From the NCBI GenBank assembly GCA_902595715.1, contig CACJRI010000004.1, forward strand, positions 16,373-80,372: DNA of 64,000 bases. The letters are read 5' to 3'. The translations under genes were made by a program, and so were the position numbers. The DNA is from an uncultured SAR86 cluster bacterium (GTDB lineage Bacteria; Pseudomonadota; Gammaproteobacteria; Magnimaribacterales; AG-339-G14). Positions 6,161 through 8,877 of the stretch are shown here, in pieces (within the stretch, counting starts at the first letter, position 1; each line of letters opens with the position of its first letter). The notes beneath the pieces were generated by a model. That model was given only the letters and a program-made list of their open reading frames with translations, was not told where the DNA came from and did no database searches.

Positions 6161-7222
6161 ATGGTAACTATAAGACTAGCCAGAGGAGGCGCTAAAAAGC
6201 GTCCCTATTTTCATATTACAGTCGCGGATTCACGAAGAGCTAGAGATGGTAAATACATCGAAAGAGTGGGTTTTTTTAATCCTATTGCCTCTGCGCAAAA
6301 CGACAGACTTAATATAGATCACGAAAGATTAGATTATTGGGTTAGTAAAGGAGCTCAAGTTACTGAGAGGGTTAAAACTTTGATTAAAGAGTCAAAACTT
6401 TCAACAGAAGATTTCAATCAATTAGTTGCAAAGAAAGAGAAACTAAGATTAGTGAAACTTGAGAAGAAAAAAGCTTCAGCATCTGAAGCAGATACTCAAG
6501 AAAGTTCTTCTGAAGGAGAAGAAGTCTCGGCTGAGACAGAAAATACAGAATCAAAAAGTACCAATAATAATAACCAATCAAACAATGAGGATAATCTAAT
6601 GGAAAAAACCGAAGATATTATCGATAAGGTTGCAGAAGGTACAAAAGACGTAGCCGAAGGCGCTGCTGAAGCTGTAACAGATGTAGCTGAAGGCGCAGTT
6701 GATGTTGCTGAAGAAGTAGTAGAAACTGCAGAAGATGTTGTTGAAGATGCTGCCAAAGCCGTAACTGATGTTGCTGAAGGAGCTGCTAATGTTGCTGGCG
6801 ATGTTGTTGAGACTGCTGAAGATGTTGTCGGAGATGCAGTTGATGCTGTTAAAGACGTTGCCGAAGGTGCAGCTGATGTTGCCGGCGATGTTGTTGACAC
6901 TGCAAAAGAAGTGGCAGGCGATCTTGCTGAAGGCGATGTTGTTGAAGCAGTAAAAGACGTAGCTGAAGGCGCAGTCGATGTTGCCGAAGACGTTGTCGAA
7001 ACTGCAGTTGATGTTGCTGAAGATGCTGTTGATGCTGTAAAAGATGTTGCTGAAGGCGCTGCTGATGTAGTTGAAGACGTTGTTGAGACAGCAGAAGATG
7101 TTGTCGAAGACGCAGTTGATGCTGTAAAAGATGTTGCTGAAGGCGCTGCTGATGCAGTTGGTGATGCAATCGATGCTGTCAAAGACGCATTCACATCTGA
7201 CGACTCTAAAGACGATAAATAA
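6161..7222 (+). CDS. rpsP: 30S ribosomal protein S16 with a ~270-aa acidic, repetitive C-terminal extension
   Basis: Residues 1-80 are canonical S16 ([37 protein letters not shown]...W..KGAQ.TERV); lies directly upstream of rimM. Confidence 0.93.
6587..6601 (+). promoter_or_regulatory. Internal RBS and in-frame ATG inside rpsP
   Basis: GAGGA at 6587-6591, a 7-nt spacer, then ATG at 6599 (codon 147), at the start of the repeat domain. Confidence 0.6.
6640..7190 (+). repeat. Degenerate ~87-bp (29-aa) tandem repeat encoding [33 protein letters not shown] units
   Basis: About 5-6 imperfect copies; recurring GATGTTGCTGAAGGCGC-type segments; one copy has a 5-aa insertion. Confidence 0.9.
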
Positions 7223-7231
7223 GTTATCAAA

Positions 7232-7741
7232 ATGACCTACCAAGATGATGATTTCATTTTGGTAGGAAGTTTTGGTCGTCCAATCGGTCTTAAAGGAAGT
7301 ATAAAATTAAATTCCTTCACAAGACCTCCTGAAAACATAAAATCTTACAATTCTTTCTTCATGAAAGAGAGCTCCCAATTTATTGAATTAGAAGTAAAAA
7401 AAATAACTACTTCCGGTAAAAATTTAATCATTTTTCTGAATAACTGCAATTCTCTTGAGGAGGCTGAAGAAACTTTTAAAGGTAGGGAAATATTTATTCC
7501 TAAATCAGATCTTCCTGAAACAGAGGATAAGTTCTATTGGAATGATCTAATTGGTTTAGAGGTAATCATACGAAGCTCAGAAAAATCTTTAGGCAAGGTC
7601 CATTCTCTTATGGAAACTGGCTCTAATGATGTGCTAATAATTAAAAATTCAAATCAAGAAGATATTTTGATTCCTTTCATTATGAAACAAGTAATTCTGG
7701 AGGTAACAGAAAAAAGCATTTATGTAGATTGGGAGGTTTAA
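7232..7741 (+). CDS. rimM: 16S rRNA processing protein RimM
   Basis: G.FGRP.GLKG, FYW.DLIGL.V, METGSNDVL, LIPF; operon position. Confidence 0.96.
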   Translation: MTYQDDDFILVGSFGRPIGLKGSIKLNSFTRPPENIKSYNSFFMKESSQFIELEVKKITTSGKNLIIFLNNCNSLEEAEETFKGREIFIPKSDLPETEDKFYWNDLIGLEVIIRSSEKSLGKVHSLMETGSNDVLIIKNSNQEDILIPFIMKQVILEVTEKSIYVDWEV

Positions 7742-8479
7742 ATGAATTTTACTTTTATTTCCTTGTTTCCCGAAATCATAAGATCTGCATTGAATGAAAG
7801 CATAACTAAAAGAGCTATCGAAAAGTCTTTGATCTCTTTTAAAACGATAAATCCTAGAGATTATCTTAAGACCAAAGAAAGGGTTGATGACAAGGTTTAT
7901 GGCGGCGGGCCGGGAATGCTTTTGAAAACTGAACCTTTAATGAAAGCTATAGACGATGCAACTTCTAAATTCGAGAGATCAGAAAGCAAAATTATTTATT
8001 TATCTCCAAAAGGCAAGCCATTTACTCAAGAGACTGCTGAGACCCTGGCTTTGGAGAAAAATATAATATTCATTTGCGGTCGCTATGAAGGAATTGATCA
8101 GAGAATCATTGATCATTATGTGGATGACGAGATAAGCATTGGAGATTATGTTCTCTCCGGTGGAGAGCTGCCTGCTTTAGTAGTATTTGATGCCATCGCA
8201 AGGAATATTGAGGGAGTCTTAGGAGACGACGCATCTCTTGAGCAAGAATCTTTTTCCGGAGGATTATTAGAATATCCTCAGTATACCAGACCGGAAAAAA
8301 TGAAATTGGGTAATGTGCCAAAAGAATTATTATCTGGAAATCATGCGGTTATAGAACAATGGCGAAAGAAACAGATGCTTGGAATTACCGCTTCGAGAAG
8401 AAAAGATCTTCTTGAAAAAATCAAATTATCACCTGAAGAAAAAGCACTTTTGGAAGAATTTTTTAATGAACTTGAGTAA
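7742..8479 (+). CDS. trmD: tRNA (guanine-N1)-methyltransferase TrmD
   Basis: VDD..YGGGPGM, CGRYEGIDQR, SIGDYVLSGGE, LEYPQYTRP. Confidence 0.99.
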   Translation: MNFTFISLFPEIIRSALNESITKRAIEKSLISFKTINPRDYLKTKERVDDKVYGGGPGMLLKTEPLMKAIDDATSKFERSESKIIYLSPKGKPFTQETAETLALEKNIIFICGRYEGIDQRIIDHYVDDEISIGDYVLSGGELPALVVFDAIARNIEGVLGDDASLEQESFSGGLLEYPQYTRPEKMKLGNVPKELLSGNHAVIEQWRKKQMLGITASRRKDLLEKIKLSPEEKALLEEFFNELE

Positions 8480-8523: not shown

Positions 8524-8877
8524 ATGAGTAGCAAAAGAACATCTATCCAAGTTATAGAAGCAACACAACTTAAAGATAATATCCCTGATTTCAACCAAGG
8601 GGATACAGTCTTGGTTGAGATTTTAGTTAAAGAAGGAGATCGAGAGAGAACCCAACCTTTTGAAGGTGTAGTAATTGGTATCAAAAATAGAGGTTTAAAT
8701 TCTGCTTTTACAGTAAGAAAAATTTCTAGCGGTGTTGGTGTTGAAAGAACATTTCAAACTCACAGCCCATTAATAAAATCCATTAAAGTTAAAAGGAAAG
8801 GTAAGGTTAGGCAATCTAAACTTTATTACCTAAGAGAACGCTCTGGAAGGTCCGCAAGAATAAAAGAAAAAGTATAA
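8524..8877 (+). CDS. rplS: 50S ribosomal protein L19
   Basis: [39 protein letters not shown]. Confidence 0.99.

Follow-up and report, generated by a model that had tools for sequence, protein, structure and literature searches.

A long, helix-periodic acidic tail on ribosomal protein bS16 of a SAR86 cluster bacterium

The rpsP gene and the parts of its product

The stretch of DNA analysed here (the window) comprises 64,000 nucleotides of an uncultured SAR86 cluster bacterium (Gammaproteobacteria, order Magnimaribacterales; GenBank assembly GCA_902595715.1, contig CACJRI010000004.1, positions 16,373 to 80,372 of the forward strand). At window positions 6161..7222 on the + strand, to which all features described below belong unless stated otherwise, lies an rpsP gene that forms a single uninterrupted open reading frame (ORF) of 353 amino acids (aa). 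Four parts can be distinguished in its product, ribosomal protein bS16: the S16 domain, a basic helix, an acidic Asn-rich linker and about 200 aa of repeats built from Val, Ala, Asp and Glu. The source genome (G000) measures 1.21 Mb in 27 contigs, is 83% complete and has 34.5% GC; the SAR86 order as a whole comprises four families with genomes of 0.9-1.8 Mb and about 34% GC (PMC11582366; this and the other papers cited by number are quoted from parts of their text).

The core domain (aa 1-80, 6161..6400) is recognized by Pfam Ribosomal_S16 (PF00886; aa 8-68, 85 bits against a cut-off of 27) and by TIGR00002 (aa 2-79, 90.9 bits against 45.3). AlphaFold2 (AF2) models it with a predicted local distance difference test score (pLDDT) of 70-92, and the model superimposes on solved bS16 chains with Z 14.6-14.1 and a root-mean-square deviation (rmsd) of 1.3-1.8 over 79-82 residues. 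PF00886 has one match in G000, that is, the gene is present in single copy, and judging from its sequence it is the only functional rpsP of this genome.

The core is followed by the basic helix (aa 81-112, 6401..6496), modelled as helical over aa 82-112 with pLDDT falling from 79 to 63. This helix is conserved across the order: of 23 S16 sequences that were parsed from other genera, 22 keep it, and the 23rd ends earlier at a contig end. Then comes a Ser/Asn-rich acidic linker (aa 113-146, 6497..6598), for which AF2 gives no secondary structure (pLDDT about 30) and which is presumably flexible. Net charge changes accordingly along the chain, from +8 at aa 1-80 and +4 at aa 81-105 to -10 at aa 106-145 and -55 at aa 146-353.

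Architecture of the repeat tail

The tail (aa 146-353) has the composition V48 A47 D39 E28 G14 K12 T10, so that seven residue types make up 198 of its 208 positions (95%). Arg and Pro are absent, and large apolar residues are limited to 1 Phe, 2 Leu and 3 Ile. Tandem Repeats Finder reports an 87-nt period in two segments, 6655-6909 (2.9 copies, 76% matches, score 293) and 6941-7160 (2.5 copies, 84% matches, score 300). At the residue level, autocorrelation has maxima at lags 7 (0.37), 11 (0.41), 18 (0.39) and 29 (0.53). The hydrophobic moment of aa 146-345 reaches 0.40 at 98 degrees (3.67 residues per turn), compared to a mean of 0.141 (sd 0.016, maximum 0.194) in 500 shuffled sequences. An earlier note on this DNA, made from its letters alone, had described S16 fused to a long acidic amphipathic repeat tail, with basic helix, acidic linker and about 200 aa of A, V, D, E, G, T and K in this order and with 29-aa units (7+11+11) of about 3.6 residues per turn. 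ORF, domain matches, charges, composition, AF2 models and periodicities all agree with that description, and the unit cited as an example is located at aa 266-294.

Two amphipathic acidic arms can be delimited within the tail. Arm 1 (aa 147-249, 6599..6907) has a moment of 0.48 and arm 2 (aa 263-340, 6947..7180) a moment of 0.52 (measured on aa 263-345), both at 99.25 degrees. This angle corresponds to 3.627 residues per turn, or 29/8, meaning that one 29-aa unit makes exactly 8 turns. In arm 1, the three sectors around the hydrophobic pole, 180 degrees in total, contain A22 V22 T2 I2 M1 G1 and no charged residue, and the opposite sectors are filled by Asp and Glu with a few Lys, Gly and Thr.

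The arms are joined by a hinge unit (aa 250-262, 6908..6946), at which the amphipathic phase slips by about 100 degrees. In sliding windows the phase moves from -163 degrees (window start at aa 238) to -53 degrees (aa 259) and the moment falls to 0.22; the helix modelled by AF2 is interrupted at aa 255-257, inside the same unit. Counterparts of the hinge are found in the sister genus g3 and in P0001, one of the closest relatives retrieved from a large protein collection (see below), and the Asp of its "GD" is invariant in our alignment A3. The protein ends with a conserved motif (aa 341-353, with the stop codon 7181..7222), which is kept in the orthologues from genus g1, P0001, P0007, P0008 and P0013 and has diverged as IKDAITGEDDDK in g3.

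AF2 predicts helical secondary structure for the tail both in the full protein and in the tail alone, in both runs with pLDDT below 50. In structural comparison of the full model, the tail aligns only to designed helical bundles and to mitofusin (Z about 12, rmsd 5-6), a range treated as uninformative for helical repeats. The extension nevertheless has a fixed architecture consisting of helix, linker, two two-faced segments of about 100 and 80 residues, hinge and end motif.

Conservation and selection

An uninterrupted ORF of 347-353 aa is present in 14 of the 16 genomes of the same genus. As to the two remaining genomes, the gene of G013 is split over two contig ends and no S16 was found in G009, a 67% complete genome whose sole match is the tail of bS6. 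In none of the relatives is there a stop codon between S16 and the repeat. Four public sequencing runs, including two RNA libraries, yield contigs that cover 24-29 of the 30 bins along the gene and display neither indels nor joints; the RNA-library contigs span the S16-linker and linker-repeat junctions, although such contigs are by themselves no proof of transcription. Differences between these populations and our sequence mostly concern third codon positions (34 of the 38 differences itemized in the coding sequence, another 25 differences lying outside this itemized set). Both outcomes that the earlier note had named as fatal to its reading, an intervening stop and a repeat expanded by assembly, are thus contradicted by the relatives and by the contigs of the four runs. 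On the grounds of these comparisons we regard the extension as a real, translated C-terminal part of bS16, 270 aa in length.

To describe selection, the ratio of non-synonymous to synonymous substitution rates (dN/dS) was pooled over 45 pairs of 10 congeners with genes of equal length (L001-L010); L011-L013 and L015 were left out because of length, L014 because of ambiguous bases and L016 because of truncation. The S16 domain has a ratio of 0.012, aa 81-145 have one of 0.27 and the repeat has one of 0.053, figures that describe these data and, the genomes being kin, constitute no independent test. Basic helix and linker together are the least constrained part of the protein. Relative to L001, the repeat has accumulated 28-39 synonymous and 1-6.5 non-synonymous differences. 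Codon comparison hence shows the repeat part to be under strong purifying selection. Since its copies are only 76-84% alike in DNA, the array must also be old and stable.

Acidic S16 tails in the order and in other bacteria

An acidic S16 tail is present in all 12 genera of the order that were sampled. The 11 other genera supplied 23 S16 sequences. In 19 of these, the basic helix leads into Pro-containing E/A/P repeats, for example (EEAPA)n; these proteins reach 299 aa in total, and their tails carry charges as low as -78. Two sequences (genus g3, 325 aa) have diverged helical V/A/E tails that share the hinge and end motif, that of G017 stops after the basic helix, and one is cut by the contig end. 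The (EEAPA)n tails resemble the tail described here in being attached to the same protein, at the same position behind a basic helix, and in their strong negative charge. Unlike it, they have Pro every 5-6 residues and therefore cannot be long helices.

In the G017 genome (genus g2, one contig, 97% complete; locus L144, G017:C1:285600-286600), S16 measures 101 aa and lacks an acidic tail. Two congeners of G017 carry S16 tails of 162 and 191 aa.

Further, 120 long S16 relatives were listed from the large protein collection, 119 of which could be parsed. Among these matches, a Pro-poor acidic tail whose moment is 0.3 or higher occurs in 33, every one of which belongs to the closest relatives (P0001-P0046). 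Other long S16 proteins on the list are mostly A/E/P-rich, with moments of 0.06-0.2 as against 0.3-0.4 here. The helical V/A/D/E form is thus confined, among the sequences sampled, to genera g1 and g3 and the P0001-P0046 group. Within it, the length of the repeat unit depends on the lineage (29 aa here, 22 aa in P0020 and P0024), and copy number shifts by whole units, giving proteins of 353, 295 and 266 aa (steps of 58 and 29 residues). Total S16 length between lineages ranges from 198 to 353 aa.

Acidic S16 tails as such have been described. S16 is among the bacterial proteins richest in low-complexity regions, with more than 100 orthologues from different genera concerned, and S6 and L31 are carriers as well, with at least 20 orthologues each (Ntountoumi et al. 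2019, PMC6821194). Of 187 such regions in S16, 157 consist of Ala and Glu to more than 70% (PMC6821194). The tail described here likewise is an acidic low-complexity region at the C-terminus of S16. In contrast to the published class, Ala and Glu account for 75 of its 208 residues (36%) and Val and Asp for 87 (42%), it contains no Pro, and it consists of a strict 29-aa amphipathic unit under strong purifying selection. Contrary to the earlier note, which knew of no S16 tails with this regular periodicity in gammaproteobacteria and took the tail for an unusual one, acidic S16 tails are not unusual in this order (12 of 12 genera) and belong to a class already in print. We classify the tail as a helical, strongly constrained form of that class (PMC6821194). 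In our literature search, supplements aside, we came across neither helical V/A/D/E repeat tails of S16 or S6 nor any account of the ribosomal proteins of SAR86; the term "ribosomal protein" does not occur in the available text of the SAR86 isolate paper (PMC11582366).

Acidic tails on bS6 and bL31

Long A/V/D/E amphipathic tracts occur in only two proteins of G000, namely bS16 and bS6. The bS6 gene lies outside the window (G000:C5:39107-39901, L107 1501-2295) and encodes 265 aa, with the Pfam S6 domain at aa 3-91. Its 140-aa tail consists of a 40-aa (120-nt) repeat whose copies are 97% identical; it has a net charge of -36 and a moment of 0.51 at 99 degrees. Three independent repeat units, 29 aa in this bS16, 22 aa in P0020/P0024 and 40 aa in bS6, accordingly share the same helical phase. 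Within the genus, bS6 varies from 185 to 290 aa by copy number, and several short-read assemblies break at its repeat. The bS6 tails of other genera are acidic but do not form a helical repeat. Complex prediction for the bS16 tail (aa 146-353) with the bS6 tail (aa 120-265) returned a score of 0.00 in a run made without controls, which speaks neither for nor against contact between the two.

In a relative with long contigs (L113, G007:C2:551010-554405), a TGA stop follows after 127 aa of bS6 and the repeat runs on in another frame, which is probably a frameshift error in the repeat.

A third acidic tail is found on bL31 (160 aa, G000:C2:66761-67240, L159, outside the window), where the L31 domain (aa 1-78) is followed by about 80 aa rich in Pro, Glu, Ala and Thr. 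Ribosomal proteins thereby make up 3 of the 14 ORFs with the most acidic 40-aa windows in G000 (bS16, bS6 and bL31). In E. coli, bS6 also is a solvent-side protein of the 30S subunit with an acidic C-terminus, to which RimK adds Glu residues. Those are few, in contrast to the encoded 140-aa repeat on bS6 and the 270-aa extension on bS16 described here.

A possible polyanionic appendage of the 30S subunit

Several solved structures suggest how the extension might be anchored. The bS16 of C. acnes has an extension of 65 aa that binds uS4 and whose distal part is invisible (PMC10085706), and that of P. gingivalis, about 100 aa long, touches 16S rRNA and uS4 (PMC12123416). The closest solved sequence is chain P of PDB 9t0z (137 aa), to whose residues 1-133 our aa 1-130 align with an E value of 1e-29, the basic helix aligning to its extension. 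As in C. acnes (uS4, h17), P. gingivalis and 9t0z_P, the extension starts right after the S16 fold; in the C. acnes and P. gingivalis structures the proximal part lies on the 30S body and the distal part is flexible. Unlike the present one, these extensions measure 55-100 aa and include neither a repeat array nor an amphipathic acidic helix of about 200 aa.

By analogy, the basic helix would rest on rRNA or uS4 where the 30S body faces the solvent, and the linker would free the acidic arms to project into the cytoplasm. Since a helix that is half Ala/Val must bury its apolar face and a conserved hinge joins arms of similar length, the arms most likely double back there and form an antiparallel hairpin or bundle of helices, with Ala/Val faces hidden and a surface dense in carboxylates. 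Such a polyanionic, nucleic-acid-like appendage might act locally by charge and bulk, and might perhaps retain cations or basic proteins or repel other polyanions; these last steps are proposed with low certainty. As for its origin, the tail may represent an ordered helical derivative of the order-wide (EEAPA)n acidic tail. We thus favour, at somewhat better than even chances, a functional bS16 with a constrained helical acidic extension that acts as a polyanionic solvent-side appendage and not as a lipid anchor.

Several observations weigh against this interpretation. AF2 confidence is low, with pLDDT below 50 across the tail in both runs; the tail is 38% charged with a net charge of -0.26 per residue, and free in solution it could be disordered. 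The tail-less S16 of G017 means that an acidic tail is dispensable in at least one species of the family, and since lineages differ in repeat number (198-353 aa), no fixed length is required. By our estimate, -55 added to the approximately 1500 phosphate charges of the 30S subunit has a small bulk effect, so that a purely electrostatic role must be local. A surface-binding role also retains some probability, because half-apolar helices of the 11/3 type are typical of interface binders as well.

Likeness to interface-binding proteins

We wondered whether the arms might lie flat on a membrane, lipid droplet or granule as 11/3-type helices, tethering or protecting the 30S subunit. The 180-degree Ala/Val face and the coherent 3.63-3.67 residues per turn over about 200 aa fit such a role, and long amphipathic helices of this pitch link the tail to phasins, CsmB, group 3 LEA proteins and apolipoproteins. 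Profile searches point in the same direction. Phasin_2 (PF09361) matches with 41.2 bits (cut-off 24.9), and also matches the g3 orthologue (32.1 bits), and Rv1893 matches with 47.6 bits (cut-off 27); the closest Atlas cluster (0.91, 197 shared features) carries the labels Phasin_2, CsmB and Rv1893. Lipids and beta-oxidation are moreover central to SAR86 metabolism (PMC11582366).

Other models of the same kinds of proteins remain below their cut-offs: the NCBIfam phasin models TIGR01841 (18.1 against 30.2 bits) and TIGR01985 (15 against 99.7), Apolipoprotein (PF01442; 18.6 against 90) and ApoLp-III (PF07464; 18 against 36.3). LEA_4 (PF02987) is not among the 16 families listed at E<=1, and the LEA_4 cluster of the Atlas reaches only 0.77. 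The 11-residue amphipathic periodicity of group 3 LEA proteins is present (lag-11 peak 0.41, moment peak at 98-99 degrees). In class A apolipoprotein helices, cationic residues occupy the boundary between polar and apolar faces; the tail has 12 Lys and no Arg in 208 aa and its polar sectors are mostly Asp and Glu. The likeness to 11-mer proteins that the earlier note had seen therefore persists at the level of profiles and features (Phasin_2, Rv1893) and is lost for LEA_4 and the apolipoproteins.

The Phasin_2 profile also matches low-complexity helices of proteins unrelated to the tail, and the profile matches appear to be compositional. When the tail by itself was compared with 1.84 billion representatives, 761 matches reached E<=1e-3 and 43 of them E<=1e-10; none reached E<=1e-30, and no true homologue appeared. 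The 14 of the 761 matches that were examined are long, unrelated proteins and comprise subtilases, an M23 peptidase/phage tail protein, solute-binding, PDZ, DUF937/OmpA and extracellular contractile injection system (eCIS) proteins and one protein without family. These matches reflect likeness of composition, not a common domain.

Further differences concern the arms themselves. Unlike in phasins, CsmB, group 3 LEA proteins and apolipoproteins, the polar face is purely acidic, the apolar face consists of Ala and Val only and offers no bulky side chains (the 208 aa include 1 Phe, 2 Leu and 3 Ile), and the helices are fused to a ribosomal protein. Since the polar face is made of Asp and Glu and the net charge is -55, with just 12 Lys, anionic bacterial membranes would be expected to repel the arms. 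A search for PhaC_N in G000 (83% complete) found none, with a positive Caulobacter control, and most genera of the order carry the Pro-rich (EEAPA)n tail, which is incapable of forming such helices. The solvent side of the 30S subunit faces away from the membrane during co-translational insertion. Kinship with lipid-associated proteins, LEA proteins or apolipoproteins is a matter of resemblance only; neither family membership nor the function of a membrane or lipid-body tether, as suggested in the earlier note, is supported. We consider interface binding unlikely and place the solvent-side appendage before it.

Less likely readings: slippage, hibernation or internal initiation

Replication slippage in an ancestral acidic tail could have produced a harmless low-complexity expansion with no specific role. 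Copy number does change by whole units (353, 295 and 266 aa), the repeat copies of bS6 are 97% identical in DNA and give 185-290 aa within one genus, G017 does without the acidic tail, and low-complexity tails are very common on S16 (PMC6821194). Mere tolerance is difficult to reconcile with a dN/dS of 0.053 in the repeat against 0.27 in the adjoining linker, with a length of 347-353 aa held in 14 species-level genomes, and with an amphipathic phase that stays strict over 200 residues, far above shuffled sequences. An additional 270 aa on a highly expressed protein would also be costly in a streamlined genome of 1.2 Mb. We therefore give this explanation only a minor chance.

Another explanation starts from the absence of a common ribosome hibernation factor. 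The Ribosomal_S30AE domain of HPF (PF02482) has no match in any of 41 genomes from the order, including 29 with a completeness of 90% or more, and TIGR00741 scores above its cut-off in none of the 41; as a control, 11 of 14 reference genomes did match HPF. A search of G000 (83% complete) for RMF found none. In the quoted part of a preprint (10.1101/2025.11.04.686544), lineages in which HPF or RMF was lost are said to depend on mechanisms not yet known. Arms resembling RNA on bS16 and bS6 might then provide built-in protection, occupying or shielding basic ribosomal sites, for example the mRNA entry or exit, when the ribosome is idle, and so replace HPF/RaiA. Solved bS16 extensions do extend to uS4, close to the mRNA entrance. 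Against this, the association is a correlation that derives from a single evolutionary event. Lineages with HPF have acidic S16 tails as well: P0106 (Caulobacteraceae, 195 aa) carries an A/E tail, and the Caulobacter vibrioides control, a different genome, is HPF-positive. The arms far exceed the length required of a channel plug. Linking HPF loss to the tails is speculative, and we hold a replacement of HPF by the arms to be improbable.

The gene might also give rise to two products. Met occurs in the 353-aa protein only at aa 1 and aa 147, and Met147 opens the repeat domain. It is preceded by GAGGA in the arrangement GAGGA-N7-ATG (6587..6601), a candidate internal start that we treat as a weak lead; initiation there would yield a free acidic helical protein of 207 aa. 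Alternatively, the tail could be a former downstream gene fused to rpsP. GAGGA-N7-ATG is kept in 12 of the 13 orthologues compared, all kin and representing about 3 of 4 lineages (g1, L015/L028 and L017), even though GAG accounts for only 8 of 44 Glu codons here and for 23% genome-wide. In the same operon trmD has a GGGAGG Shine-Dalgarno sequence, and the 16S rRNA ends with CCTCC. The motif is missing, however, in L018, a g3 genome, Glu-Asp codons readily spell GAGGA, and no relative has a stop codon between S16 and tail. No free-standing homologue of the tail shorter than 194 aa was found, the 14 short matches being fragments of 32-75 aa or weak, and all 120 matches listed carry the S16 domain (194-618 aa). 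Two products, or a captured gene, appear to us very improbable.

An assembly artefact or a wrong merger of two ORFs can practically be dismissed: repeats are prone to mis-assembly and the bS6 repeat does end contigs in G005, G006 and G010, but the bS16 gene has equal length in 14 independent assemblies, including contigs of 0.8-1.1 Mb, contigs of the four runs show no indels, and copies 76-84% alike have diverged enough to be assembled.

Significance

Acidic low-complexity S16 tails belong to the commonest unexplained features of bacterial ribosomal proteins (PMC6821194). The genus described here offers a tractable case, with a defined helix-periodic tail, a selection signature (about 0.05 against 0.27) and a parallel bS6 tail on the same subunit. 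Its lineage is globally abundant, no HPF has been found in it, and a relative of it is in culture. Should the tails have a specific role, they would provide insight into modification or protection of ribosomes by streamlined marine bacteria; if they have none, they would serve as a benchmark for the constraint acting on "mere" low-complexity sequence.

A bolder scenario, which we rate as unlikely, is that this order, one of the most abundant in the ocean and devoid of the near-universal hibernation factor HPF, grew protein "expansion segments" (the tails of bS16, bS6 and bL31) and that in this genus the tails of bS16 and bS6 independently became, under strong selection, rigid amphipathic arms of 15-30 nm with a specific job. 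If true, that job would be an RNA-mimicking shield or plug for idle ribosomes, or a link between ribosomes or between a ribosome and a surface, and the arms would represent a new class of functional ribosomal protein appendage rather than low-complexity decoration.

Neighbouring genes and further observations

Three ORFs follow rpsP on the + strand (7232-7741, 7742-8479 and 8524-8877), which from their translations we take to be rimM, trmD and rplS, the customary genes 3' of rpsP. The rplS product L19 measures 117 aa and has no tail. A scan for promoters and terminators predicted 8 promoters where 7.5 are expected, that is, not above chance. No inverted repeats were found within 6500-7300, and on this ground a mobile or palindromic element was rejected as the origin of the tail. 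The 16S rRNA of G000 is full length (model positions 1-1533 matched), and a tail compensating for rRNA reduction was likewise rejected.

GNN codons make up 85% of the repeat (6596-7219), since Val, Ala, Asp, Glu and Gly all use codons beginning with G, and G occupies 2% of third codon positions. Because of these two properties the reverse strand is free of stop codons over long distances. The reverse-strand ORFs at 6496-7230 and 6596-7243 were accordingly read as shadows of the repeat, given that population differences sit on third positions of the + frame.

Unusual composition is not limited to ribosomal proteins in this genome. An ORF of 202 aa (G000:C2:57488-58096, L162 19-627) combines a Lys/Pro/Ala-rich, histone H1-like N-terminal tail with a C-terminal four-Cys motif, which presumably resembles the zinc finger of DksA/TraR. 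Two very long ORFs, of 2516 aa (G000:C4:92556-100103) and 2138 aa (G000:C15:4942-11355), contain extreme runs of Glu/Ser or Glu-Glu-Thr.

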